From positions 1 to 40,414 of the IMG/VR virus record IMGVR_UViG_2917398303_000004: DNA of 40,414 nucleotides, one strand, 5' to 3'. The translations under genes and the position numbers were made by a program. Origin of the DNA: a virus (taxonomy: Duplodnaviria; Heunggongvirae; Uroviricota; Caudoviricetes). The notes under the pieces are model-generated. The model saw only the letters and a program-made list of their open reading frames with translations, was not told where the DNA came from and ran no database searches. Shown in pieces: positions 3,702 through 28,916 of this stretch; position 1 is the stretch's first letter, and each line of letters starts with the position of its first letter.

Positions 3702-6419
3702 TTAAGCTACATTGCCGGGGTAGGAGGCATTGTCGTATTGATAGAAGGAGTCGCGGTATTCTTTTGCTGTAACCTGACATGTTCCGTCAGACTGCGGTGA
3801 AATCTCTGAGATTAGTGCGCTGTAACCAACACGTGAAGATTCGCAGAATATAAGGCGTGGAGGTTCGATAGATTGATCATTCAGTATGATGCCGATGAAC
3901 TCATCCTGTTCAGACACCGATAATTCATAATCACTAACCTTAGTAACTGGAAGCAAACCAGACGCTGAGCCATCCTGATAGCGAATTAACGCGCGCGGAT
4001 TGTTGAATGTCCAGTCAAGTGGTTCTGATACAGCGATAGTTGTTACACCACCTACAGTTCTCATATGATCAATCAAAGTGCTGATTGTTTTGCTACCTGG
4101 AATGTCATCAGTAAAAACAATTCGGTCGCCTACGTTATAGCAAAGCGCGTCCATTTCCGTGGTCGTGGTATGGGTCAAACGCTGCTGCCTGTACTTCATC
4201 AGCCTTCGCATGCCTATCTGATAAGCTCTGTCCTGATCAAGCACGCCATCAAGCGTATAATCTTCAACTTTAACTGGAGTAGGATTACCCGATGTTCTGC
4301 ACTGAACCGTCTCTTCAGCCCACGTAGTGCCATTAATGTAAGTGACATCCACGCCATCATAATCATCGGCTGATGGTGCAACGAAGGCCGTTTGAAGCGC
4401 TTCTGTCATTTCCTGCGGGCTAATGATTCCCGTCCACGTTTTCACCCCCTCCCTTCCAACAGAAGCCATACCATCAGACAGCAGGAAATAGCTTTTACCT
4501 GCACTGGTGACTTTCTGAAACATTTCAAGAGCGGAAACTGAGTCTGTTGTTGCGTAATCGAAAAACTCGCTATCAGGCGTCCAGTAAGATGATTCCAGCA
4601 TATCAATCGCTTCGTTATCCATCGCAAGCCCCAGCTCATTTCCAATGTGGTATAGCGCACCTGAAATGCTCCTGGAAATACCGGAATCATAAATGCGTGT
4701 GGCGACTACGTTGACACGGCGATCGGACTGAGCGGCAAGCTTTCCACCCGTTTCGACTGAGACAGCCATAGTGGTTACACCAGAGTATGATGATGGTCTT
4801 GAAAGCAACCTCCCCCTCAATGACTGCCAGTACATGTTATCCCTGCTGTTATCCTGACCTTGTTCGTTCGTTCTCCTGCATCTAACCTCTACCAAACCGG
4901 CTGATGCCAACGTGATACGCTCAGTAAAACCTAACCCATTAATATTTTGCTGATTGTAAGATCCAGTTTTGCTGGTCCAGCCTGAACCAGAACCGTAAAC
5001 ACGGTATTGAATTTCCCACTGAACAATCCTGTTCTGCTTCCTGCCCTTCTTGTTATACCCACAAATACCGTTTGGGAAGAAGAAATTGACCTCAAACATA
5101 TCAACGACTTCATTATCTGGACATGTGAGAAACGGCCCCATCCATTTATTGTTCTGATTTAATCCGTTTGCTTCAAAATCAAGCACTGTACGCGGCGTGA
5201 AACCTGGCCATTCCGGGTCAACAGCACCCTCTACAACACGCTGTAAAGTAACGGTGCTGGCGTCGATTTCCAGAATTTTATATTCGCTGCCTGAGTGCGA
5301 TACTGATAAACGAATGTATCCTTCAGGAATACCAGTAAATGCTGTTCCGGTTGCGCTTTCATACGCCAGAGCGATTGACGCCGTAACAACGTCTTCATCA
5401 ACAGGTTCTGAATGGGGGATGTAATCAGCAATGAAAAGCTGGTAATCGATACTGTTGTACCAGAGAGTAACTGGCATACCGATGTATGGAGCAATCTCTT
5501 CCAGTGTGTCACTGGTTATTCTGCTGTATGCGCCATCATTGGTGACAACATAAGAATCTGGAACAATCAGTTCAACAATTGCACCTTCTGTCCATGAGTC
5601 AGGAAGGTCGTTTGTATCAGTATTTCCATCGTCAGTACTAAGGCCGTTAAAGGTGATATCTGCACCAGATACCGTTAATGAATCTGCTACAACATCCTGT
5701 GTATCCGGGGCTGTCTGCGCCATATCAAGACCAGAACCAGATGCCGTTCCGCCTACTTCTGTTGAGTTGAACCAGTTTTCCGTTCGCTGATCACCGATAA
5801 TGTTCTGTCCTGGCTGATATACATTATAGGTAAACCCATCACCAAGAGAGGCGATTGGCGTTGACCCAACGCGAATGTCGCCATCACCAAATGAAAAACG
5901 GCCCATACCCAGCACCACAAACATTTCAACCGTCATTACAGTCGGATCATCAGTTGAGAATCTTGTTACTGGTTGCACTGCATAATCTGGATAAATACGG
6001 CTGCGACCAAATAACTCGCGTATCGGATCACCCAATTTCGCGTTATTCGCTTTAGCAGGATTTACATCAAGTGGATTACCTGTTCCTGATGAATAACCAC
6101 CAAGATCACCAACACCAGGAGCAAAGAATAAAGCGTAAGCTACAGACGCAACTGATACGGCAACTGCAATCCAGGCGAGAGCTACAGCACCGTAAGGAAC
6201 AGGATAAATTCTGACGTCGCTATCCGGGCTGATTGCGAACTCAAACCACGCCTGAGATGGAATATTTTTCCCATCAACGTCAATTGTGATCGGCTGTTTA
6301 ATATCAGGCTTATAGCCCTCTACTTTTTTTGACAGCCATTGATGTATGGTTATAGCGCCATGTTCATGTGTTTCCAGCGGTTCGCCGGGGATGCGGGAGG
6401 GGTAAATTCGGATAGTCAC
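3702..6419 (-). CDS. Tail tip / host-specificity (central fibre, J-like) protein
   Basis: 905-aa protein immediately downstream of NlpC/P60 tail assembly gene and upstream of tail fibre; start overlaps upstream stop. Confidence 0.6.
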   Translation of the reverse strand: MTIRIYPSRIPGEPLETHEHGAITIHQWLSKKVEGYKPDIKQPITIDVDGKNIPSQAWFEFAISPDSDVRIYPVPYGAVALAWIAVAVSVASVAYALFFAPGVGDLGGYSSGTGNPLDVNPAKANNAKLGDPIRELFGRSRIYPDYAVQPVTRFSTDDPTVMTVEMFVVLGMGRFSFGDGDIRVGSTPIASLGDGFTYNVYQPGQNIIGDQRTENWFNSTEVGGTASGSGLDMAQTAPDTQDVVADSLTVSGADITFNGLSTDDGNTDTNDLPDSWTEGAIVELIVPDSYVVTNDGAYSRITSDTLEEIAPYIGMPVTLWYNSIDYQLFIADYIPHSEPVDEDVVTASIALAYESATGTAFTGIPEGYIRLSVSHSGSEYKILEIDASTVTLQRVVEGAVDPEWPGFTPRTVLDFEANGLNQNNKWMGPFLTCPDNEVVDMFEVNFFFPNGICGYNKKGRKQNRIVQWEIQYRVYGSGSGWTSKTGSYNQQNINGLGFTERITLASAGLVEVRCRRTNEQGQDNSRDNMYWQSLRGRLLSRPSSYSGVTTMAVSVETGGKLAAQSDRRVNVVATRIYDSGISRSISGALYHIGNELGLAMDNEAIDMLESSYWTPDSEFFDYATTDSVSALEMFQKVTSAGKSYFLLSDGMASVGREGVKTWTGIISPQEMTEALQTAFVAPSADDYDGVDVTYINGTTWAEETVQCRTSGNPTPVKVEDYTLDGVLDQDRAYQIGMRRLMKYRQQRLTHTTTTEMDALCYNVGDRIVFTDDIPGSKTISTLIDHMRTVGGVTTIAVSEPLDWTFNNPRALIRYQDGSASGLLPVTKVSDYELSVSEQDEFIGIILNDQSIEPPRLIFCESSRVGYSALISEISPQSDGTCQVTAKEYRDSFYQYDNASYPGNVA

Positions 6420-15728: not shown

Positions 15729-17375
15729 TTAGCTGGTAGCGCCAGTGCTGTAATCAACGCCGGAGATAACAGCTACTGCTGCATCGCGACGGCGTTTCCA
15801 GTTAATCCAGCGCTCTGCACGAATGGCCACGCTGTTGGTCTGGAACATGGATACCAGTTCCACTGCCGTTGGTGTGGTGCTGTCATGGGTCGGAGTACTC
15901 TGCATTTCCAGAGAAGCTTCGCGAGACATATCAACGGCGACACCGCCGTCATCAGCCAGGTACACATCCGGCGCGTTAACCAATACCAACTGATTGCCAA
16001 CGTACTGGGAGACAATTACTGGCAGACCCTGGAATGTACCGCCCAGCATGGTCATGTCAGGATACTCTTTCTGGCCCAGGGCATTTTTACGCATTGAGAG
16101 AGTGAGAGCCGTAGTACTGGACATCAGCCATACCGCGCCATTCGGCTGCAGGTTATTGGTAATAAATTGACCAAATGCTGCTGCAGCATCGGTATCCGGA
16201 TCGCCAGTAGACGGAATCGCAGTAATGCCGTTGGTAATAGATGCAGGGGAAACATCAGCCACTGCCGCTTTTGCCGGGTCGATGAAGTCGGTATCCAGCC
16301 GCGCGATCACCGCTTCAGCCAGGGCGTTACGCACCAGAGCATCAGCAGATGGATTTGAGAAACGGATCAACTCTTCGGTCAGTACTGCAATAGAAGCCAC
16401 CTTGGAGAAACCGAAGGTGATGGTTGCGAAGTCAAACTTGGTCAGAGGCTTGGCTTTACCCTGACCAACCCAGTTAGCAGAACCTCCGGAGGTCTGCGCC
16501 GGAATTCGAACATTGAACGGAACCTGACGCAGGGACGGGATGTTACCCTGGCCAAAACGTCCGATAATGGTCTGAGGACGCAGAAACTCAACGAAATCCT
16601 GCGCGTAATCCTGATATTCAACCAGTGCACCAGCCCAGGCAGGGTCTGTGGTAGTGCCAGCACTTACCGCAGCTTTCAGAACGTGATGAAGTTTGGTGTC
16701 ATCAGGATACTGGTTTTTCGCAATCTGTAGCGCTTCGGAGCGGCTACCGTTACCAGCTGCCAGAGACTTGGCAAAACGGGCAAAGGCAATACCTTTTTCC
16801 AGCTTAGGCTCTACACGGATGATGGATGGTGCGTTATTCACCACTGTAACTTCACCAGATGCTGCTTTAGTTACTGGCTTGGCGGTTGATGCCATGCTGG
16901 TTTCCATATCACGCAGGCGTTTAAGGTGCTCGTCGACCGCTTTGATTTCAGTAGAGGTGTTGTCGTAGCTTTCTGTTTCTTCCGCATCCAGCGTGCGGCC
17001 TTCATCGGCGGCTTTGCTCATGATGTCGTTCAGTGAAGAGGCCAGCGCTGCACGCTTGTTTTCAAAACTTTTGATCTGTTCAGCGATATTCATCGTTGAT
17101 TTTCCTTTTTGAGAAGATTTATTCGGTGCTGAAGCGCCAGCAGAATTTATGGTTTTCACTACCGGTTTCTCAGTGCCGAGCGCGGCGAGTAACTGGCGGT
17201 CAAACGATTTAACGGTTTGAATCGAACACTCGGCATTCGCCGGGATCGTTACTGCAGAGACTTCAAGAAGCTCCCATTCAAGAAAATGGATGCCACCAGA
17301 GCCGAGATATGCGTATTTAATTGGCTTGAAGCCGATAGAAAGGCCTTTCACAGACCTGATTTGATCGATGCCCAC
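15729..17375 (-). CDS. Major capsid protein (HK97 fold) with N-terminal scaffold-like delta region and the C-terminal part of an S78 prohead protease domain
   Basis: GLSIGF protease Ser motif at N-terminus, coiled-coil segment, then capsid-fold core; in a different frame from the protease N-terminal ORF. Confidence 0.75.
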   Translation of the reverse strand: MGIDQIRSVKGLSIGFKPIKYAYLGSGGIHFLEWELLEVSAVTIPANAECSIQTVKSFDRQLLAALGTEKPVVKTINSAGASAPNKSSQKGKSTMNIAEQIKSFENKRAALASSLNDIMSKAADEGRTLDAEETESYDNTSTEIKAVDEHLKRLRDMETSMASTAKPVTKAASGEVTVVNNAPSIIRVEPKLEKGIAFARFAKSLAAGNGSRSEALQIAKNQYPDDTKLHHVLKAAVSAGTTTDPAWAGALVEYQDYAQDFVEFLRPQTIIGRFGQGNIPSLRQVPFNVRIPAQTSGGSANWVGQGKAKPLTKFDFATITFGFSKVASIAVLTEELIRFSNPSADALVRNALAEAVIARLDTDFIDPAKAAVADVSPASITNGITAIPSTGDPDTDAAAAFGQFITNNLQPNGAVWLMSSTTALTLSMRKNALGQKEYPDMTMLGGTFQGLPVIVSQYVGNQLVLVNAPDVYLADDGGVAVDMSREASLEMQSTPTHDSTTPTAVELVSMFQTNSVAIRAERWINWKRRRDAAVAVISGVDYSTGATS

Positions 17376-17665
17376 GCTTCTTCAAGCCTAGCCACAAGTT
17401 GCGATGGCATGTCAGGTGTTGGCTTAACAAGTTGCGCCGTGATCTGAAGCCCTTCATTCACTTTCTTTGCAGAACAGTTCCCAATAGGTTGGGTTCTGTC
17501 GTGCTGCCAGAGAAAAGGGTTTTCACTGCCGAACTTCGCACCGTCTGGGTCCATAATGTCGCCGTCACGGTCAGGTGATGGTGTGGAAGCAATCCCGGTG
17601 ATTATCCGTTTGTCCTCATCCACCGCTTTCACCGTCATGATCGTACATGCGCGGTCAAGCTTCAT
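17348..17665 (-). CDS. Prohead protease (S78/U35 family) N-terminal portion, frame-broken from the downstream ORF
   Basis: Contains the WQHD catalytic His region; the Ser motif lies in the overlapping ORF 15729-17375. Confidence 0.55.
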   Translation of the reverse strand: MKLDRACTIMTVKAVDEDKRIITGIASTPSPDRDGDIMDPDGAKFGSENPFLWQHDRTQPIGNCSAKKVNEGLQITAQLVKPTPDMPSQLVARLEEAWASIKSGL

Positions 17666-17723: not shown

Positions 17724-17996
17724 TTATATAAAAAAAACCTGGTAATCTTTCTTCTTCGCTTCAGGATTAAGTGCCATTAGCGAAACGGCATTAAACAGGG
17801 CCATAAGGGGGTCAATTTTCCCCTTTCCGCTGGCCTGTTTGGTGATGAGGATAGCGTTACCTTTTGGCTCTACTCTGGCGTTGCCTACACACCAGGCCAT
17901 TAATGGCTGTCCACCATGAATAAGCACCTCCCTCTGCAAGCTTGCGCTCTGTTGTCTTAATCGCACCACCAAGTCTCCAGCCCTGGCTGACACCAA
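17724..17996 (-). CDS. Terminase large subunit C-terminal fragment (alternative frame)
   Basis: HGGQPLMAWCVGNARVEPKGNAIL...GKIDPLMA resembles terminase large subunit C-termini. Confidence 0.5.
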   Translation of the reverse strand: MVSARAGDLVVRLRQQSASLQREVLIHGGQPLMAWCVGNARVEPKGNAILITKQASGKGKIDPLMALFNAVSLMALNPEAKKKDYQVFFI

Positions 17997-19383
17997 CCAC
18001 TGAATCTTCAGGTATTTCAGCTTCTACAAGAGCATCAAGAATCTGACCGACACCAGAAGGGTCAATGCCAATTTTATCCAGCAGTTCCGCATCATTAATA
18101 CGGCTGACATATTCAGCGACTTCCTCCGTGTCCTGTCCTACTCGTTTTACGATAGTGAGGTCACCGGCCTTAACGAAATCGTTGAACCTGGATTCCTCGC
18201 TTTTGCGGCGGCGCACAGCTATTTCATGCGCCCAGGCATGGCCCCAGCCAATCCACTCACGGGTTTCTTTGTCACGACCAATAATGTAAAGACCAAGAAG
18301 GTCATCAAGGCCACCACCATCTATCCCAACCGTAGCAACCTCAGCTCTCTGAAGGATATCGCTGAATGTTACCTGCCTAATTTGCGGCTCCCAGAAATCA
18401 ACGCCTGCCCATCGGTCACTGCGGAGGTTCAGACCAATTTCGATATTGAGGTGTTTCGCAAGGAACTGCTGTAATGTGCCGTCTGTTTTGTTCTGGTTCT
18501 TCAGAAGCTGATCGGCAATCCATTCTTCACTTACCGAACGTCCAATATTTGGATTGGTGATGTAGAAATTTTTTGGTTCAAGGTAAGCCTTACTTTCCAC
18601 CATAGAGTCAGGGAATTCATACAGGACGCCGAGTGTTTTAAGGTCATTAATCTTTCCATCTCGCACAGCACGCCAGTAATCAAGGCGTTCTTTGAATACA
18701 CCAGCAGGTGGTTCATCACTTTGTGTAGTCAGGAATATAACCCAGCCTTCGTTGCGAGATACCTGACCACCAAGTGCTTCCATAAACATGGCTTCGGCAT
18801 TAGCTCGCTTGCCAAACAACCAAAGCTCATCAACCAGAATGCGCCCTGACTTTTTACCTGAAACAGTATCGGTGTCAGCTGCTACTACTTTGAGTGTATT
18901 TCGCGTTACTCGGTGTGTGATGGTGCGGATATGGTCCTGAATCTGGAACATATCAGACAGCTCATCATCGGCGCGTATCATCCCGGCAGCAGGTTTAAAA
19001 CTGTTATCTGCAACCTCTTTTGTCGGCGCGAGAATCAGGTGCTCTTCATCTTCACGCCAGCACAGGATTAGCGCGGTCAGCATAATCCCTGCAGCGATGG
19101 TCGATTTTGTGTTCTTTTTCGAGATAAGTAGTCCATATTCGCGGATTAACTGCTTACCAGTCTCTGCTTCATAGCCACCGAAGATGGCATTTACAAAGTC
19201 AAATACCCATTCCTCTGAGCACTCACCAAATGTTGGCTTCCCTGGTAAATCAGAGACGCGTAACTCTTTGAAGATTCCAAGTGCCTGTTCTGCCTGGTCT
19301 GGGAAAATTGGTGGTGGGATGATTGATTGCTTTGCAACCAGAAGAGATTCCCATTCAGGGCAAGCCGTGGTCCATTGAGCCAT
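17857..19383 (-). CDS. Terminase large subunit (frame-disrupted near its 3' end)
   Basis: ATPase and nuclease-like regions; C-terminal terminase sequence continues in ORF 17724-17996 in another frame. Confidence 0.8.
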   Translation of the reverse strand: MAQWTTACPEWESLLVAKQSIIPPPIFPDQAEQALGIFKELRVSDLPGKPTFGECSEEWVFDFVNAIFGGYEAETGKQLIREYGLLISKKNTKSTIAAGIMLTALILCWREDEEHLILAPTKEVADNSFKPAAGMIRADDELSDMFQIQDHIRTITHRVTRNTLKVVAADTDTVSGKKSGRILVDELWLFGKRANAEAMFMEALGGQVSRNEGWVIFLTTQSDEPPAGVFKERLDYWRAVRDGKINDLKTLGVLYEFPDSMVESKAYLEPKNFYITNPNIGRSVSEEWIADQLLKNQNKTDGTLQQFLAKHLNIEIGLNLRSDRWAGVDFWEPQIRQVTFSDILQRAEVATVGIDGGGLDDLLGLYIIGRDKETREWIGWGHAWAHEIAVRRRKSEESRFNDFVKAGDLTIVKRVGQDTEEVAEYVSRINDAELLDKIGIDPSGVGQILDALVEAEIPEDSVVGVSQGWRLGGAIKTTERKLAEGGAYSWWTAINGLVCRQRQSRAKR

Positions 19384-19949: not shown

Positions 19950-20318
19950 TCAGAGAATTACGATGCCAGATTGTGATTTATCTTTCGGCACAGAGTGCTT
20001 CAGAGCCTCACCATCAGGCTGGTTCATTGATGCTTCGCGCGATGACTTACCTGAGTGACACTCAATGCACAGAGTCCACAGGTTGCGCTCATCGTTGTCA
20101 CCACCGAACTGTAGAGCTATGCGGTGATCAAGCTCGCTGTCATGAAGGTCAACTACTCGCTTACACATACAGCAGTGACCACCGTCACGAACATAAATAC
20201 GCCGCTTTAGGCTTACCCTTGCGCTACCACTCACACGGCGATGCTCACCATAAACAGGCTTTATTCGGCGTGTGTCGATAGCCTTTAGGCGCGGTTGTAG
20301 TGTCTTTAGCTTAGACAT
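19950..20318 (-). CDS. HNH endonuclease (terminase-associated)
   Basis: CxxC...DH...N...CxxCH motif; GGAGG Shine-Dalgarno 5 nt upstream of ATG at 20318; adjacent to terminase small subunit as in HK97-like phages. Confidence 0.75.
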   Translation of the reverse strand: MSKLKTLQPRLKAIDTRRIKPVYGEHRRVSGSARVSLKRRIYVRDGGHCCMCKRVVDLHDSELDHRIALQFGGDNDERNLWTLCIECHSGKSSREASMNQPDGEALKHSVPKDKSQSGIVIL

Positions 20319-20904
20319 GTAACCTCCATGCTCTACGTCTTTCTGTTCTTGGCTGATTGTCTCTGGCTGGTTCCACTGGCTGTCCGTCAGCGTGGTCAAC
20401 GAGCGAATAGCATGGATAGACAACAGGACCACCGTAAGCATCGCCTACTGCATAGTCTGCTGCTTTGCCGTGATTCCATTTATCCAGAACTCGCTTGATA
20501 TGCTGATGCGGTACGCTGTAGCAGACGCCATGGATCAGGCGTGGAAGTGTGATGTAATCCGTTCTGCTCTTATCTGCTGCGATTAGCTTTGATGCTATAT
20601 CGAGTTGATATTGTGGAGGACGACCAGTACCGAGATAGAAAGAAACCAGCGCATCAGGGAAGCGCTCAATCCACTCAGCGAGTTTGTTGGTGAACCCATC
20701 AACTGGAATTGCATCGTCTTCTAAAATGACCACTCGGCAAGACTGCTCTTCTGCCCATTCAAGAGCACGGCGGTGATTCCAGTTAGCACCGTTATCTCCC
20801 GTGTCGATAAGCAGTAATGCACCTATCGACTCTGCCAGAATTAATGCTTTTTTGTGGCGCAAATGGTGACCAACAACCACAAACTTTACTTGTGCCTCCA
20901 CCAT
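20311..20904 (-). CDS. Hypothetical protein, possible GT-A-like nucleotide-sugar transferase
   Basis: 197 aa; beta-strand/helix start KFVVVGHH and acidic VVILEDD segment suggest a DxD-type fold; overlaps both neighbours. Confidence 0.4.
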   Translation of the reverse strand: MVEAQVKFVVVGHHLRHKKALILAESIGALLLIDTGDNGANWNHRRALEWAEEQSCRVVILEDDAIPVDGFTNKLAEWIERFPDALVSFYLGTGRPPQYQLDIASKLIAADKSRTDYITLPRLIHGVCYSVPHQHIKRVLDKWNHGKAADYAVGDAYGGPVVYPCYSLVDHADGQPVEPARDNQPRTERRRAWRLHV

Positions 20905-22343
20905 GCCAACTCCTTGCCAACGCCTTCAGACTTGAAGATGGTATGAACCTTCGGCCCGGTAATAACCTTGTTGCCAAATGACTTTGCCACCATGCAAAAT
21001 GCACCCATATCAACTTTCGTTTCTGGAGCTTTCTCAATCTTCCAGAAGCGATGGCTTTCAATCAGATAATGCTGACGGATGATACGATGCGCGAACTCCA
21101 TAACGTCTTCACGGCTACCACCTAACAGGCCAGCATTAAGCAGTGGTTCATCGCGATGCTGCTCGATGAAATCGCTATACGCCTTGCCGTGGTGATTAGC
21201 TTTCATCCATTCGTCAGCATACGTCTTGTGCTCTGAGCCAACGTAAATTTTACCCGACTTCATTTCTTCCCATGGCTCTCGCAACATTTCAACGTCAGTA
21301 CCATCAGTGCACCAGACAAGGTGATACTCAGGGTGCGCACGTAGAAACTGATAGATGTGAAGCCAGCGGGCAAAGTATGGGCTCATGTCCACCAGCGGGA
21401 CTTCCCCCAAGCCAGCACCAGTTGGCGATTCTTTTAATTCGTCAGCCAGGACGATCGGTAATGCGCCGGATATTGAGTCAGCCCATGATTGCAAAACCTG
21501 CGGGTCGGGTTTCATCTTCCCGCCGCGCTGTGGGTCTGGCTGGCTTGTGAGTAGCGTCGTAATCACCAGATTTGGGTTTCTGCTGTACGAGGCAAAGCCT
21601 GTATAACCGCTGTCGCGTCGCGTGTTGAAGATGCCAACGTTTCTTTTTACCAGCGCCTCTCGGTCAGGTCGTGGAATTGAGCGCGTGCCCTCTTCGTTCT
21701 CATCCATTGAATGAATCAGTTTTTCAGAGCCGGCCACATCAGCGAACGCCCAGGTCGATAACCCGGCATTGTGAATGCGTAGCGCCAGATCGGGATGCTC
21801 ATACATGCCGCGACCATAAACCGGATCGAAACCGCCAACCTTCACGATCGCGCTGCGGTGGTAATACAACATCACACCGCGTTGTCCGGTGTAAGCGATA
21901 TGCTTATCATCCCGGTACAGCACAGCCATATCATTAAGCTTTCTCGGCCCAGCAAGATCGAGAAACTGGTAAGCCAGGTGCGGCTCGGGGGATTCGATGT
22001 AGGGAAGATGCCAGTTATCAGCGATGGGCCATGCATCATCATCCCATAGGAAGAAATGCTCGCACCCCGCGTCCATAAGTGCTGAAAGGCTGGCGTTCTT
22101 TGATGCAACTATTCCGAGAGATGTTTTATGACGTAGCAACTTCACACCTTCTGGAACTACAGCAGCATGGTTTGAGCCATCATCGATAACAACCACCAGC
22201 GCACCAGATGGAAGATGCTTCATGTGCTGCTCAATAGAGCGTTTAAGCACTTCAGGACGGTTATGGGTTGTTATTGCGATGCCAATTCGCGATGAGTTGG
22301 TGCATTCTGGTACAAAACGCACACCCCCTATTAAGACTTCCAT
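20886..22343 (-). CDS. Family-2 glycosyltransferase domain protein with approx 250-aa C-terminal domain of unknown function
   Basis: N-terminal IGIAITTHNRPEVL...VVVIDDGS...FFLWDDDAWP matches GT2 signature incl. DxD; no TM segments seen. Confidence 0.65.
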   Translation of the reverse strand: MEVLIGGVRFVPECTNSSRIGIAITTHNRPEVLKRSIEQHMKHLPSGALVVVIDDGSNHAAVVPEGVKLLRHKTSLGIVASKNASLSALMDAGCEHFFLWDDDAWPIADNWHLPYIESPEPHLAYQFLDLAGPRKLNDMAVLYRDDKHIAYTGQRGVMLYYHRSAIVKVGGFDPVYGRGMYEHPDLALRIHNAGLSTWAFADVAGSEKLIHSMDENEEGTRSIPRPDREALVKRNVGIFNTRRDSGYTGFASYSRNPNLVITTLLTSQPDPQRGGKMKPDPQVLQSWADSISGALPIVLADELKESPTGAGLGEVPLVDMSPYFARWLHIYQFLRAHPEYHLVWCTDGTDVEMLREPWEEMKSGKIYVGSEHKTYADEWMKANHHGKAYSDFIEQHRDEPLLNAGLLGGSREDVMEFAHRIIRQHYLIESHRFWKIEKAPETKVDMGAFCMVAKSFGNKVITGPKVHTIFKSEGVGKELAWWRHK

Positions 22344-22666
22344 ACACCACCATCAGCAAGATTACGCGTTGCAAGAAAGTCGTTCACCGCACCCCGTAAC
22401 TCTTCTACCTGTTCAACGGTTAATGGCTCACGTGGATGGATCACAAGATGGATCGCGGTAGGTGCGAGAGGGTTATCCAAATTAATGCGCGGTTGGTTTT
22501 CTGAGTGCTCATTACTAAGGTTAAATGTCGCGATAACCTTCGGTATGGCGTTCGGTTCAGTTTCTAATACTGTTGAAGCCTGTCCATCAAGAAGAACACC
22601 ACCTACGGCTATTCCATATCCGAAGAAACGATTACCACGATACAATTTTGCGAGCTGATATTTCAT
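22331..22666 (-). CDS. Hypothetical protein (first gene of glycosyltransferase operon)
   Basis: 111-aa ORF with AAGGA Shine-Dalgarno; 13-nt overlap with downstream GT gene. Confidence 0.5.
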   Translation of the reverse strand: MKYQLAKLYRGNRFFGYGIAVGGVLLDGQASTVLETEPNAIPKVIATFNLSNEHSENQPRINLDNPLAPTAIHLVIHPREPLTVEQVEELRGAVNDFLATRNLADGGVWKS

Positions 22667-24160: not shown

Positions 24161-24187
24161 AAAAAAGCCCCGCTATTGCGAGGCTAT
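24161..24187 (-). terminator. Rho-independent terminator, copy 1 of the 27-bp repeat, overlapping the o-spanin stop codon
   Basis: Same 27-mer as 22793-22819. Confidence 0.55.
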
Positions 24188-24400
24188 AGTTTCTTTCTGG
24201 CAGTTCGCCTGCCACGCTTTGTTATGCGCCAGAATGTCGCGCTTCGTCTGCTTATCCAGCACGTCGATATCGTTGTCGGTCAGATAGATAATTCTGGTCC
24301 ACAAACACCCGGTATCAACCACCACCGGGGCGGGTGAAGTTTTCGCGCAGCTCGCGATCAACATCGTCATCAGGCATATGGTTAACACTCTGCTGTACAT
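24173..24400 (-). CDS. o-spanin (Rz1-like outer-membrane lipoprotein)
   Basis: Signal peptide with LIASC lipobox, embedded in the +1 frame of the i-spanin gene. Confidence 0.6.
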   Translation of the reverse strand: MYSRVLTICLMTMLIASCAKTSPAPVVVDTGCLWTRIIYLTDNDIDVLDKQTKRDILAHNKAWQANCQKETIASQ

Positions 24401-24593
24401 TGCTGGCCTCTCTGGTGACTTCTGCCTGACGTTCCGCCACTGCAACCTTCGCCGCTGCGTTTTCTTCAGTGCGTTGTCGATCGGCTTTCGCTTCTGCTTT
24501 GCTGGTTCCGCTAATATGGCCAAGACCAAAACCACCGGCAGCGGCAACACAGATAGCACCAATAACACCGATGATGATTTCTACTATGCTCAT
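24315..24593 (-). CDS. i-spanin (Rz-like)
   Basis: N-terminal TM helix then charged coiled-coil; ATGA overlap with endolysin stop. Confidence 0.65.
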   Translation of the reverse strand: MSIVEIIIGVIGAICVAAAGGFGLGHISGTSKAEAKADRQRTEENAAAKVAVAERQAEVTREASNVQQSVNHMPDDDVDRELRENFTRPGGG

Positions 24594-25201
24594 GCAATCA
24601 CCGCTTTCGCTTTGGTGTAACGAACACACCTGTCGTTAATGCCGTTCTGACCGCCATTGATAATCTGAGTGATGCGCGCCAGGTCATCGGTGTACTTCAG
24701 ACAACCTTTGGAGACGTAGAACCATGCAGCAGAACGTGCAGCATTAATGTCTTTCTCCAGCAGTTCAGGGTTAGTAACCAGGTCAAGCTTCAGACCATTG
24801 CCGCAATCGCGGTAATTAGTGAGACCGGTAATCTGAATTAACCCGCGTCCACGGTATTTCCAGCCATAACCAGCAGCTTTGTTACCAAGACGGTTGCTGT
24901 ATACCAGGTTTGCGATAGCTTCCTGACTTGCTGGCTTACCGTTCGCACGCCCAAGCATTGATGCCTGATAGTTCGTTGCCCGGCGTCCAAACGTAGTCAG
25001 TAATGCAGCAGGCGTGTAGTTGAAGTTCTCCACCAGCGCAGAGAATCCCGCTGATTCATGGCCTGCCTGAGCAATGAACATCGCCTTATCTTTTGGCTCA
25101 GTGATGCCAAACTCTTTCATTGCATCCGTAATCGGCTGAAACCAGCGCGCAGCTAACCCGGCGCTAATAACAGCCGCCTGTTGAAATTGTGATTGGTTCA
25201 T
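24590..25201 (-). CDS. Endolysin, glycoside hydrolase family 19 (chitinase-like lysozyme)
   Basis: AQAGHESAGF and YRGRGLIQITG motifs of GH19 lysozymes. Confidence 0.85.
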   Translation of the reverse strand: MNQSQFQQAAVISAGLAARWFQPITDAMKEFGITEPKDKAMFIAQAGHESAGFSALVENFNYTPAALLTTFGRRATNYQASMLGRANGKPASQEAIANLVYSNRLGNKAAGYGWKYRGRGLIQITGLTNYRDCGNGLKLDLVTNPELLEKDINAARSAAWFYVSKGCLKYTDDLARITQIINGGQNGINDRCVRYTKAKAVIA

Positions 25202-25458
25202 TAGTGCCTCAGAGCATCAATAAGACGCGCCACGTTTCCCCGAGCCCAAAGCACGGCGGCGCATATCAGGATGTTAACGATGACCACCAGCCAGTGTGAT
25301 TCCAGGTATAGGCCGAACAGATAGCGGAACGGGATGCTGGCATAAACCAGCACCGTGAAATAAGCGAGAAGAGAAACTATCGGGCGATGTCAGGCACCGC
25401 CACGCTGGTAAAACATCAGAGTAAGAACGATGATCGCGCTAATGCCCGCATTGATCAT
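25201..25458 (-). pseudogene. Holin-like small membrane protein interrupted by in-frame TGA (25390-25392)
   Basis: Own translation: MINAGISAIIVLTLMFYQRGGA-stop-HRPIVSLLAYFTVLVYASIPFRYLFGLYLESHWLVVIVNILICAAVLWARGNVARLIDALRH; TAATG overlap with endolysin start. Confidence 0.35.
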
Positions 25459-25468
25459 CGCTGAAGGA

Positions 25469-25864
25469 TCACTTGTTACCATTGCCGGTCCCTCCACCAC
25501 GTAAACGCGAGAGAATTCCAAACAGGCTACCCAAATCCTGGCTGTTGACGAAAGTCAACAGCTTAATAGCAATTGCGGCAACGATTACCGCGCCCAGCGC
25601 ATCAAGTGGTCTGTCGCTATACCCCGTCCATTTGGAGAAGAAGGAGCCAAGCAGTGGCGCGCCAATAACGCCGAAGATGAATGAGGTGATGAAGTAGCCA
25701 GTCAGCTTAAGGCGGCTGATATTAACCGCCGTAGCGACGTAGAATACCGCGCCAGCGAATGCGCCAAACACAACACCATAATCAATACCGGTTGCGATAC
25801 CAAAAACACTGGCTCCCATAAGGCCACCAGCGGCAACCGTAGTGCCAGAAACAGGATCGGACAT
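25469..25864 (-). CDS. Multi-TM membrane protein, putative holin
   Basis: 131 aa, 3-4 predicted hydrophobic helices, first gene of lysis block. Confidence 0.45.
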   Translation of the reverse strand: MSDPVSGTTVAAGGLMGASVFGIATGIDYGVVFGAFAGAVFYVATAVNISRLKLTGYFITSFIFGVIGAPLLGSFFSKWTGYSDRPLDALGAVIVAAIAIKLLTFVNSQDLGSLFGILSRLRGGGTGNGNK

Positions 25865-25948
25865 TTAGCCCCCTCTTATTGCCGTGAGTCCTCTCAAAAC
25901 GAGGGGAATAAAAAAGGCCGCCTTCAGGCAGCCTTCTAGTGAAAATAA

Positions 25949-26626
25949 TTATTGTCTCAATTTAACTCGCTTCCATTCTGTTTTTAAGCATCTTTGACTC
26001 GATTTAATATATAGTTCTTTTAGTCTTCGGTATGCTTTTTCCACCTCTGAACCATCTACATAAAACATACGGATATCTTCGTTCTCGAACATAAAGATCA
26101 TGTTTTTCTGACACGTCAGTATAGCTTTTGATGTCCATTCATGGGGATTTAGCATTAGCTGTATATTGGTAGCCAACTCAAGTATACGATGCTCAGAATC
26201 AATCACCACATCAAAGTATTCGTCTGCTCTCTCATTCGTGCCATTGCCCCATTTAGCACCTTCTCTTTCAGCAGAGTGCATTCGACGAAAACGCTTATGC
26301 TTTTCACAGCTCATAATGAACTCTGAGCAGTAACTTCGAAGGGTATTAATCCATTGTTGTCTATTTGTAGACAACACCTGAGAATCAAAAGCCATTTCAG
26401 CTAAATGACGTTGATTATCTCTGTCTGTTGCGGCTAAATCATCATTCTTTTTGATTGTGTACCATGCCACAGCAGTTGGCAGTGCTGCACCTACAAAAGC
26501 AGCAAGTACAGATCCAAAAATGGTATCCCAACCAATTCCGGTATCAACAATAATCTCAGGTATTTTTGTAACTGCTAATCCAGCATCTACAGTGAAAAGT
26601 GGATAAGGTATCCCTTGCCAAGCCAT
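25949..26626 (-). CDS. Hypothetical membrane-anchored protein (AT-rich moron between Q/tR' and lysis genes)
   Basis: 225 aa, single N-terminal TM helix, low GC relative to flanks; no recognisable domain. Confidence 0.55.
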   Translation of the reverse strand: MAWQGIPYPLFTVDAGLAVTKIPEIIVDTGIGWDTIFGSVLAAFVGAALPTAVAWYTIKKNDDLAATDRDNQRHLAEMAFDSQVLSTNRQQWINTLRSYCSEFIMSCEKHKRFRRMHSAEREGAKWGNGTNERADEYFDVVIDSEHRILELATNIQLMLNPHEWTSKAILTCQKNMIFMFENEDIRMFYVDGSEVEKAYRRLKELYIKSSQRCLKTEWKRVKLRQ

Positions 26627-26733: not shown

Positions 26734-26762
26734 ATTTAAGCACCTTCTGGCTCACATTGCAA
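26734..26762 (-). promoter_or_regulatory. Candidate late promoter pR' (TTGCAA-17-TTAAAT) overlapping Q stop codon
   Basis: Sigma70-like -35/-10 with 17-bp spacer on minus strand, directly upstream of the tR'-like terminator. Confidence 0.4.
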
Positions 26763-27356
26763 CTTAAATCTGCTGCTATTTGTGCCGAATGCATCACACA
26801 TTGGTGCATAAAGCATGAATTCTGCCAAACTTAGCCAAGAATCAATTCTGCGGCGGCAGGTCATGTAGCACCACTCTGGATGACGCTTTTGAAGTTGCTC
26901 TGCCATGAAGCGTTTGCTCTTGCGATAGCGGTATCGGTCCAGTAGCACATCAAACAATCCGTTATGACCATTTGAGATCAGCACAGCCGCGATAACGCCA
27001 TCAATGCATACACCCTCATCATCTGAGCAGAACGCAATGCCTGTCTTGTTTTTGCCATCGAGAATTTCACGGAAGAACGCTTCGAGTTCTGGTTTCGACA
27101 GCCCTGATTTCTTCATGCGACGTAAAGCGTCATTGATGGCTGTCTTGGTGATTTTCCCGGAGGCCAACAACTGGTTAAACATATTGCCGCCTGAGCCGCC
27201 ACCTATGAATGACCAGCGGCCCCACATACGTAGTTTGCCCTGAATCCATACACTTTCCAGTGTACGCAGTCGTGCCATTTCCCCGGATTTGCCAACTTCG
27301 GAAGGATTAATCATTTTGCGTCTCCACTTACGCCAGTACACCGGTTGCCAGCGCAT
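26736..27356 (-). CDS. Late-gene antiterminator Q-like protein
   Basis: Position immediately upstream of pR'/tR' and lysis genes; size and Cys/His content compatible with Q family; no motif confirmed. Confidence 0.5.
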   Translation of the reverse strand: MRWQPVYWRKWRRKMINPSEVGKSGEMARLRTLESVWIQGKLRMWGRWSFIGGGSGGNMFNQLLASGKITKTAINDALRRMKKSGLSKPELEAFFREILDGKNKTGIAFCSDDEGVCIDGVIAAVLISNGHNGLFDVLLDRYRYRKSKRFMAEQLQKRHPEWCYMTCRRRIDSWLSLAEFMLYAPMCDAFGTNSSRFKLQCEPEGA

Positions 27357-28317
27357 GATCGATAAAACGAAATATCAGCTCAAGTTGTGAGCCGTATTTC
27401 TTCTCAAATGCCACGGTGTCATCATGAAGCTCCCGGTGATGCAGCCTGCACAACGGCAACACAAAGAGATCATGCGCTTTTGTACCCATTCCACCCTGAC
27501 CGTGGCCTATCAGGTGATGGGGGTCATCTGCCTGCTTGTTACAGCAGGCGCACGGCTGTGATTTAACCCAGCGCGTGTATTTCTCATTCTCCCAGCGACG
27601 GCGCTTAGGCCTGAGCATGAACGATTCCGGCGATTCATCATCAACCTTTATCGTCAGTACCTTTTTCGCCCTTTCCTGCAATACTTCTGTCGCTGCCGGA
27701 CGCGGAACAATGTCACTCTCCCGCATCACTGACTGATGCTCTTCTGGCTTCATTCCCATGGCTTTAGTAGCTATTCCTTCAGGGATGACATCAGCCAGGC
27801 CTCTTCGCACCATCCACCAGCAAAACTCAGGCAGGGTAAGCTGGTGGTCATCACTGAAGCCCAGCTCACGAAGCACTACAGATAAAATCCAGGATACCAG
27901 GTTTTCACGCGCTATGCCTGCCAGTCTTTCCGTGGTCTGATCACGTAATTGGTTATCACATGCCCAGCACAATCTGATTGAGCTTGGATGATGGCGAAAC
28001 AGCGTGAAATGCGGGCTGTGATAGTCGTTGTGGGGCCACTGACAGACGAATGAACACTCTAGCCACCTGTCCAGTGAGACAAGTCCACCAGCCCGCGCTA
28101 TCACCTTCTTGTTCTCAAACACGGCCTTCATCATTGGGTCTTCTGCCAGTGGTTGAGATGCCGGAGGGATTGCCCCTGTTGGGTATGTGGCGTAGTTCTC
28201 CGGCTCTTCTTCAATCAGTACGCGCCCACGTTTGAACAGGTACATCAGGTCAGGGCCGGGACGGAACAATACGATCCCCAGCCCGTTAGCAACTTCCGGC
28301 GTTAACAGTGCTCTCAC
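27328..28317 (-). CDS. DUF968-like protein with C-terminal His/Cys-rich (HNH-like) region
   Basis: C-terminal CACC...HHLIGHGQGG...LCRLHHRELH motif; common partner of Q in lambdoid prophages. Confidence 0.5.
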   Translation of the reverse strand: MRALLTPEVANGLGIVLFRPGPDLMYLFKRGRVLIEEEPENYATYPTGAIPPASQPLAEDPMMKAVFENKKVIARAGGLVSLDRWLECSFVCQWPHNDYHSPHFTLFRHHPSSIRLCWACDNQLRDQTTERLAGIARENLVSWILSVVLRELGFSDDHQLTLPEFCWWMVRRGLADVIPEGIATKAMGMKPEEHQSVMRESDIVPRPAATEVLQERAKKVLTIKVDDESPESFMLRPKRRRWENEKYTRWVKSQPCACCNKQADDPHHLIGHGQGGMGTKAHDLFVLPLCRLHHRELHDDTVAFEKKYGSQLELIFRFIDHALATGVLA

Positions 28318-28916
28318 GCTGCATGCCCCTTAGCAAGATATTCAACCCACAGGCCACCAATCCACTTCACCCCCTTTGCTGTGAATCGTGACTGGCTGAA
28401 GGCATAGTTTGATGCGTTCGTTGTTCCCGTCTTAACCTCAAAACGTCCCGCTTCAGTGTGTTGATGATACGGAGTCAGGACATTGTTAAGGCGGTACATG
28501 ATGTGACTATCAAGCAGGAAAAGACGGAACTCCGGCTCTTTAGCGTGGAGAAGCTTCGCCACCTGCCGGAACGTCATCGAACCAGTAGCAGTAACATAAC
28601 GGTCAACAAACTCTGCTTTCGGCGCGGCAACAGCCAGCTCTTCACTCAGGCGCTGTTTTTGCTCTTCCAGATCAGCAGCAAGCCGCAGAGCTTCAGAGAA
28701 GGATTGCGGAATTGCAGGCTTACTCTCCTGCTCCAGCTCAAGCCAGCGATCGATAATGCGCTTCCGAAGAATCACGTTATAGCCAGATACCAGCGTGAGG
28801 CATAAATCCTTAGGAAGATGGAAACATGGATAGGCTCTTCCCCTGTCATCCCGGTAATCTCCTAAGAACTCAGGAGATTGAATATTGAGCAAACTGAGCA
28901 TATTGGGCAATCTCAA
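28314..28916 (-). CDS. Rha-family regulatory protein with KilA-C-like C-terminal domain
   Basis: N-terminal YPCF...LVSGYNVILRKRIIDRWLELE and C-terminal FRQVAKLL...SNYAFSQSRF segments. Confidence 0.5.
   Translation of the reverse strand: MRLPNMLSLLNIQSPEFLGDYRDDRGRAYPCFHLPKDLCLTLVSGYNVILRKRIIDRWLELEQESKPAIPQSFSEALRLAADLEEQKQRLSEELAVAAPKAEFVDRYVTATGSMTFRQVAKLLHAKEPEFRLFLLDSHIMYRLNNVLTPYHQHTEAGRFEVKTGTTNASNYAFSQSRFTAKGVKWIGGLWVEYLAKGHAA

Follow-up and report, generated by a model that had tools for sequence, protein, structure and literature searches.

Whether a lysis cassette can still work once one of its putative holin genes carries an in-frame stop codon is the question raised by the window, by which we refer to the whole 40,414-nucleotide stretch of Caudoviricetes DNA analyzed here. 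The original prediction, made from the sequence without database searches, described a lysis cassette in which a very hydrophobic, holin-like frame directly upstream of the endolysin is interrupted by a TGA at 25390-25392, and offered two readings: that the holin has been inactivated, in line with other disrupted genes, or that a preceding multi-TM protein of 131 aa is the functional holin and the small frame an antiholin or accessory remnant. The explanation that we put forward with good confidence is that of a lambdoid cassette in which a gene of the PF05449 family has recently become a nonsense pseudogene within a decaying prophage.

The existence of a lysis cassette is borne out by profile matches to holin families, a GH19 endolysin and spanins. 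Encoded on the minus strand, with a Q-like antiterminator upstream, the cassette spans 24173-25864 in the order PF16931 gene, PF05449 gene, GH19 endolysin, i-spanin and o-spanin. On the opposite strand, the region 25201-25864 holds open reading frames of at most 74 aa, all of them inside better-supported minus-strand genes. The intact endolysin gene (24590..25201, 203 aa) matches Pfam PF00182 and phrog_181 (E 8e-82), and its product aligns over residues 2-203 with the SPN1S endolysin structure 4OK7 (E 3e-77), so that similarity to the SPN1S-type GH19 enzymes is full length. Hydropathy analysis of its first 60 residues revealed no hydrophobic stretch and no SAR or signal segment, and because it lacks a hydrophobic N-terminus the enzyme is predicted to be soluble and holin-dependent. 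The gene has its own GAGG Shine-Dalgarno sequence, five bases ahead of the ATG (25201..25199). Immediately downstream, an Rz-like i-spanin of 92 aa (24315..24593; phrog_1026, E 4e-31) carries an N-terminal membrane helix at residues 1-25 by hydropathy; its ATG (start 24593) overlaps the endolysin stop (end 24590), and gene calls in relatives include it as well. The Rz1-like o-spanin lipoprotein (24173..24403, 76 aa; phrog_1275, E 3e-33), with the sequence MYSRVLTICLMTMLIASC and a lipobox that reads LIAS|C, is read from another frame, and its gene shares sequence with the i-spanin gene at the latter's 3′ end. A membrane-helix i-spanin and an overlapping lipobox o-spanin are thus both present, as in two-component spanins of the Rz/Rz1 type. 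A search of NCBIfam yielded no model for any cassette protein.

Two terminator-like hairpins flank these genes on the minus strand. A consensus scan places one of them, followed by a T-run, at the cassette end (24166..24185), where it overlaps the 3′-terminal codons of the o-spanin gene, stop included. The other (25906..25937) is an 11-bp hairpin with a U-rich tail and a predicted RNA folding energy of -17.8 kcal/mol (z-score -2.67); absent from the consensus scan list, it sits between an upstream low-GC open reading frame of 225 aa and the first holin gene, and would need to be passed by late transcription.

The first gene of the cassette (25469..25864) is intact and encodes the 131-aa multi-TM protein that the original prediction had placed ahead of the small frame. 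Its product belongs to Phage_holin_8 (PF16931; 128.4 bits, E 2e-37, against a cut-off of 26.4), with residues 1-124 aligned on profile positions 1-121, and to phrog_198, which is labeled 'holin' (E 2e-40). The gene is preceded by a Shine-Dalgarno sequence, AAGAGGGGG, at 25877..25869. Hydropathy and an AF2 model together predict four membrane helices followed by a C-terminal helix that is short and basic, the modeled helices covering residues 7-25, 30-46, 51-80, 85-108 and 111-122. The pLDDT of this model is low (57.7), as is that of the model of an intact PF05449 orthologue (59.2), and with both below 60 we took helix boundaries alone from them. An identical protein is encoded in six other contigs, and the 90%-identity cluster of the sequence has 779 members.

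The second gene (25201..25482) belongs to Phage_holin_3_7 (PF05449, formerly DUF754; phrog_217). Translation, Pfam, DNA alignments and a tblastn match over residues 1-93 agree on a frame of 93 codons, which begins at the ATG at 25482, behind a GGAGG Shine-Dalgarno sequence, and ends at the TAA at 25203..25201. The frame is therefore longer than the 85 codons first assigned to it, a count that started at Met9 (25458). In 120 family proteins this position is Met in 70 and Leu or Phe in 39 others, while D5, P6 and A8, which precede it, are conserved; the poor conservation of Met9, together with that of the residues before it, argues for Met1 as the true start. The gene overlaps the PF16931 gene by 14 nt, an overlap kept in 77/77 full-length IMG/VR relatives, and the endolysin ATG by 1 nt. 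The proposed TAATG coupling is thus confirmed at the nucleotide level, the last A of the TAA being the A of the ATG at 25201..25199.

When the stop is replaced by one residue, the restored translation matches PF05449 with 65.8 bits against a cut-off of 25.4, in an alignment (residues 10-88) that crosses the stop, and it aligns over its full length with the 93-aa proteins of relatives; an intact orthologue matches phrog_217, also labeled 'holin', with E 4e-35. Far from having no homologues, the finding that would have undermined its reading as a holin-like gene, the small frame has 156 in the database, nearly all of 92-93 aa. Hydrophobic stretches of the restored protein at residues 6-26, 34-52 and 59-82 by hydropathy correspond to modeled helices at 6-27, 34-55 and 63-92 in the intact orthologue. 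The suggested homology and topology analysis hence finds both proteins to be of holin families, with three predicted helices in the restored PF05449 protein and four in the 131-aa protein. The distribution of charges (D5 at the N-terminus; R27, R31 and R33 in loop 1; E61 in loop 2; R81, R86 and R92 in a basic C-terminal tail) is consistent, by the positive-inside rule, with the N-out/C-in layout of a class I holin. The gene directly adjoins both the PF16931 gene and the endolysin between which it lies, and its restored product matches the family profile, whereas the uninterrupted reading frame of about 90-105 aa expected of the family is broken at codon 31. Sequence comparison therefore places it within PF05449 by descent, yet as a pseudogene.

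The interruption itself was correctly located: a TGA at codon 31 of 93 (25390..25392, minus strand), in the basic loop (QRGGARHRP) that joins helix 1 to helix 2, with C as the next base. It differs from the codon of relatives by one base, an A-to-T change on the coding strand at 25392 that converts the AGA of Arg31 to TGA. Codon 31 is AGA in 9/9 intact close relatives (mEp390, two E. coli chromosomes and the six contigs with an identical PF16931 protein). For a broader comparison, 80 IMG/VR contigs were seeded with the PF16931 protein of the window; the second gene is present in all of them and full-length without a stop in 77, where codon 31 is AGA in 75 and AGG in two. Across 120 family proteins, the residue at position 31 is Arg in 110 and Lys in seven (117/120 Arg/Lys), and a stop occurs there in none of these proteins and in none of 86 close relatives. 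Because relatives have a sense codon, usually for Arg, and no stop at this position, the TGA is not read as a recoding site, and the alignments indicate that the gene is an A-to-T nonsense pseudogene rather than a chance frame. Beyond this change, the gene departs from its nearest intact copies only by three synonymous changes, I17V and Q60L, and this short list of five substitutions suggests that the lesion is recent. The predicted product is a 30-aa peptide with the first membrane helix only. The next in-frame start is the GTG at codon 44 (25353), the beginning of a 50-codon frame that would encode helices 2 and 3; we saw no Shine-Dalgarno sequence upstream of it and rejected a restart there on that ground.

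The TGA allele was found in one assembly only. In NCBI data, the endolysin sequence of the window occurs in a single contig, PDIB01000034.1 of Escherichia sp. E4694 (assembly GCA_004745285.1), and species-representative genomes contained no match to a degenerate DNA pattern that allowed for either the TGA or the AGA variant. Locus L005, considered as a second genome with the TGA, was discarded as not independent: like L026, it is contained letter for letter in the window, and all of them represent one and the same record. The best match in a complete E. coli genome is 88.6% identical. As a reference for lesions we used a homologous prophage that is intact in E. coli PCP07014, and most structural proteins of the window align with it end to end at 85-100% identity. 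Relative to this prophage, the major capsid gene (645 aa) is divided over two frames near 17352 by a 1-nt deletion, and the large terminase gene (552 aa) over two frames near 17929 by a 1-nt insertion, neither of them within a long homopolymer. In the same window, a homologue of the KilAC antirepressor lacks its first ~63 residues.

The cassette resides, in all likelihood, in a lambdoid, mEp390-like prophage of Escherichia sp. E4694. With its capsid and terminase genes frameshifted, this prophage is very probably defective and therefore unable to make virions, and the three independent point lesions in late genes point to an early stage of decay. Since genes for the capsid and for DNA packaging are also broken, the nonsense lesion in the PF05449 gene is the ordinary decay of a dormant prophage. 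The expectation that the small holin-like gene is inactivated, as other genes of the window are, is in this respect upheld by the AGA-to-TGA change and by the 1-nt deletion and insertion in the capsid and terminase genes.

The relationship of the interrupted gene to its intact neighbor can be followed across phages. PF16931 lies directly upstream of PF05449 in 23/23 other genome, phage and contig loci, which include 14 species-representative genomes, reach down to 47% identity and in some cases have a different endolysin. The pair is present in the 80/80 IMG/VR loci seeded with the PF16931 protein of the window, in 160/160 assessable IMG/VR loci seeded with the PF05449 proteins of phiCTX, SPN1S and Pylas, and in 78/78 and 77/77 loci seeded with the PF16931 proteins of RSA1 and phiP27, respectively; Pfam confirms it in SPN1S, RSA1, Pylas, phiP27 and phiCTX. 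The assessable loci number about 400 in total and come from five lineages of phages (lambdoid, P2-like, epsilon15-like, N4-like and Stx); this sample is composed of the neighborhoods of the seeds and was not de-duplicated, and no cassette with PF16931 alone or PF05449 alone occurs in it. The pairing is kept where the type of endolysin changes, and in the loci examined the PF05449 gene always abuts the endolysin start. PF16931 and PF05449 hence constitute an obligately paired, co-inherited module. Homology of the two proteins to each other was rejected on profile comparison; over this comparison and those of the pair with P2 Y and LysA, hhalign probabilities were 0.1-0.15. In two prophage contigs of the phiP27 type, PF05449 is disrupted beside an intact PF16931, by a deletion in L375 and by a frameshift in L400, so pseudogenes of this family recur.

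Among known systems, the closest counterpart of the cassette is gp48-gp52 of coliphage mEp390 (gp48 and gp49 holins, gp50 endolysin, gp51 and gp52 spanins), together with the cassettes of related Enterobacteriaceae prophages; mEp390 presents the same five families in the same order and with the same 14-nt and 1-nt overlaps. With the window it shares 95% protein identity in PF16931, 85% in PF05449 and 65% in the GH19 endolysin, and gp49 is an uninterrupted protein of 93 aa, as in other relatives, whereas its counterpart in the window has the TGA at codon 31. More distant pairs, with protein identities of ~30-45% to the window, are orf9/orf10 of phiCTX, gp12/gp13 of Ralstonia phage RSA1, 0026/0027 of Salmonella phage SPN1S, gp75/gp76 of Klebsiella phage Pylas, L28/L29 of the Stx2e phage phiP27 and those of Burkholderia phages KS5, KS14 and KL3; all have both families in the same order directly upstream of the endolysin. 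The endolysin itself is a muramidase with PG_binding_1 in phiCTX, of the PG_binding_1 type in KS5, KS14 and KL3 (PMC3091744), and of the GH19 type, like that of the window, in SPN1S.

The lysis genes of P2 offer an architectural analogy. P2 Y (PF04550) is a class I holin with 93 aa and three helices, and the stop codon of its gene overlaps the start of the endolysin gene, much like that of the PF05449 gene of the window; P2 LysA (141 aa, without a Pfam hit) is a separate, larger protein analogous to the 131-aa protein; the gene order differs, in that lysA follows the endolysin. LysA reportedly has four helices and modulates lysis timing. The 131-aa protein of the window has four predicted helices and is encoded next to a holin-family gene, as would be expected of a candidate antiholin of this kind, a role that is predicted for it by annotation only. 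We rejected homology of the pair to Y and LysA, with an hhalign probability of 0.1 for both, and retain the analogy of architecture alone. In Pfam naming, PF05449 belongs to the same Phage_holin_3 series as P2 Y (Phage_holin_3_2), a series that presumably also includes lambda S. The class I layout of lambda S105/S107, with three helices and a basic C-terminal tail, is common to the restored PF05449 protein. A lambda-like dual-start motif is not conserved in the family, where Met9 occurs in 70/120 members; the regulator of lambda S arises from a dual start, whereas any regulatory partner in the window would be a separate gene.

These comparisons bear on the division of labor within the pair. 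Given its three helices, class I-like topology, adjacency to the endolysin and annotation as a holin, the small PF05449 protein is somewhat the likelier pore-former, with PF16931 as a partner antiholin or co-holin. This is the reverse of the suggestion that the 131-aa protein is the holin and the small frame an antiholin remnant, for which we found no support. Lynch 2010 (PMC3091744) predicted the small DUF754 protein of KS5, KS14 and KL3 to be the holin and the upstream gene a putative antiholin, and the Pylas record contains the same prediction, holin for the small protein and antiholin for the larger; in both cases roles were assigned from position and topology only, and Pfam and PHROGs call both families 'holin'. 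Searches of the literature on PF16931 and PF05449, also as DUF754, 1.E.56 and the holins of SPN1S, mEp390 and epsilon15, retrieved no functional study; papers on the holins of UE-M6 and Xanthomonas X2 were set aside as dealing with unrelated two-helix holins. The possibility that Hol (PA0614), the experimentally studied pyocin holin of P. aeruginosa, is of the phiCTX orf9 type and would give PF16931 a proven holin activity was rejected through PMC4684702, which assigns the pyocin holins to TC 1.E.20 and describes them as 'not related to' the phiCTX type, TC 1.E.56.

In intact relatives, we propose, the 93-aa PF05449 protein would form the hole that releases the soluble endolysin, with the 131-aa PF16931 protein acting as its antiholin or co-holin partner; the endolysin would then cleave the peptidoglycan and the spanins would disrupt the outer membrane. 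In the window, the change of Arg31 from AGA to TGA would stop translation in the first cytoplasmic loop and leave the 30-aa peptide, with helix 1 only. Polarity on the endolysin is probably limited, because a Shine-Dalgarno sequence of its own remains ahead of this gene. Second in likelihood to these roles is an obligate two-component holin, and the stop would cripple timed lysis both in that case and if PF05449 is the holin.

This proposal has to be weighed against the fairly unlikely reading that the TGA is real and the cassette still works, PF16931 being a self-sufficient holin and PF05449 a dispensable antiholin or accessory regulator whose loss would shift only the timing of lysis, in line with the second of the two readings first offered. 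Such a reading would accommodate the recurrence of disrupted PF05449 genes beside an intact PF16931 in L375 and L400, as well as the 'holin' label that Pfam and PHROGs give to PF16931 no less than to PF05449. It could also draw on the intact state of the surrounding genes, namely a PF16931 protein whose sequence recurs unchanged in prophages where the partner is intact, an endolysin with its own Shine-Dalgarno sequence and both spanins, but intact neighbors are equally expected after recent decay and hence little informative. If PF05449 were dispensable, natural cassettes with PF16931 only would be expected, yet there are none in the 235 assessable PF16931-seeded loci; moreover, annotators give the two families the reverse roles, and both the class I holin-like topology of PF05449 and its position next to the endolysin argue for the small protein as the holin.

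The remaining alternatives question the stop codon itself. A sequencing or assembly error, with AGA in the living strain, would be compatible with an allele that comes from one source record and differs by a single base from all relatives. Substitution errors are, however, rare in consensus assemblies, two independent frameshifts in essential genes of the same 40-kb prophage, outside long homopolymers, fit real decay, and a second contig has been reported with an identical endolysin and, at the level of gene calls, mostly the same neighboring genes; we regard such an error as very unlikely. Extremely unlikely, in our estimate, is a bypass of the stop, through read-through of UGA-C by tRNA-Trp or re-initiation at GTG44, that yields enough full-length or two-helix product for a holin function tuned to act late. 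In E. coli, a UGA with C as the next base is reportedly the weakest termination context, and the frame opened by the GTG at 25353 would supply helices 2 and 3. Against this, the consistent absence of a stop at position 31 in the 86 close relatives and 120 family proteins leaves no conserved recoding site, GTG44 lacks a Shine-Dalgarno sequence, and Trp inserted by read-through would replace a conserved basic residue. Holins such as lambda S work through mass action once present in many copies, so that read-through of a few percent would fall far below threshold. Recent loss of PF05449 in a decaying prophage thus remains our preferred reading.

The cassette is a defective member of a known and widely annotated type, and the lesion itself carries little weight, given that a point-mutated lysis gene is expected in early prophage decay; annotation pipelines routinely mark such genes as pseudogenes. 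The value of the analysis lies in a corrected gene model, with 93 codons, a 14-nt overlap and a stop in place of Arg31, and in documenting the strict co-inheritance of two 'holin family' genes across very different phages. It is possible, if unlikely, that PF16931 and PF05449, which occur together in every assessable locus sampled, form an obligate two-component holin, for which the Arg31-stop allele would be a natural knock-out. If the cassette of E4694 still lyses cells, PF16931 would be a holin of a new type, with four helices and able to act by itself, and the widespread annotation of the small protein as holin and the large one as antiholin would be wrong.

Relative to the intact homologous prophage of E. 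coli PCP07014, the major capsid gene of the window (15729-17665, minus strand) carries a 1-nt deletion (TT to T) near position 17352 that breaks the reading frame in two; the intact protein comprises 645 aa in that relative, and outside the lesion the two gene copies are 96-99% identical. The large terminase gene (17724-19383, minus strand), whose product has 552 aa in the same relative, is likewise split into two frames, here by a 1-nt insertion and a neighbouring substitution near 17929. A KilAC-type antirepressor homologue (28314-28916, minus strand) starts at a TTG codon and matches only residues 64-238 of the 238-aa protein of the relative, and may be N-terminally truncated or mosaic.

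Disrupted lysis genes are also observed at loci outside the window. In two IMG/VR contigs of the phiP27 type, L375 and L400, an intact PF16931 gene adjoins a disrupted PF05449 gene, which in L375 is joined at about codon 48 to downstream sequence by a deletion (about 1925-2070) and in L400 is frameshifted near codon 21 (about 1900-1970). The locus of E. coli Z142-3 (L002; NZ_CP159694.1) retains an intact holin pair, and its GH19 endolysin is reduced to the first 25 codons (3720-3794), leading directly into a gene annotated as phage portal protein. This locus is a further decayed copy of the cassette type found in the window, and arose by deletion.

Between the terminase genes and the lysis cassette lies a 485-aa family-2 glycosyltransferase gene flanked by ORFs of 197 and 111 aa (20311-22666, minus strand). 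This layout is kept in E. coli relatives and in coliphage mEp390, and the region may constitute a surface-polysaccharide modification module.

Upstream of the holin genes, a low-GC ORF (37-42% versus ~52%) encodes a 225-aa product with an N-terminal membrane segment (25949-26626, minus strand) and is followed at its 3′ end by its own terminator-like hairpin (25906-25937, minus strand). With the holin genes on one side and a Q-like antiterminator (26736-27356) on the other, it sits in the position that the Stx genes take in Stx phages. Searches of Pfam and PADLOC returned no match for this ORF, its sole match being phrog_18859, which PHROG labels as of unknown function, and its 90%-identity cluster contains homologues from E. 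coli, Raoultella, Enterobacter, Citrobacter, Klebsiella and Hafnia. The ORF looks like a moron.
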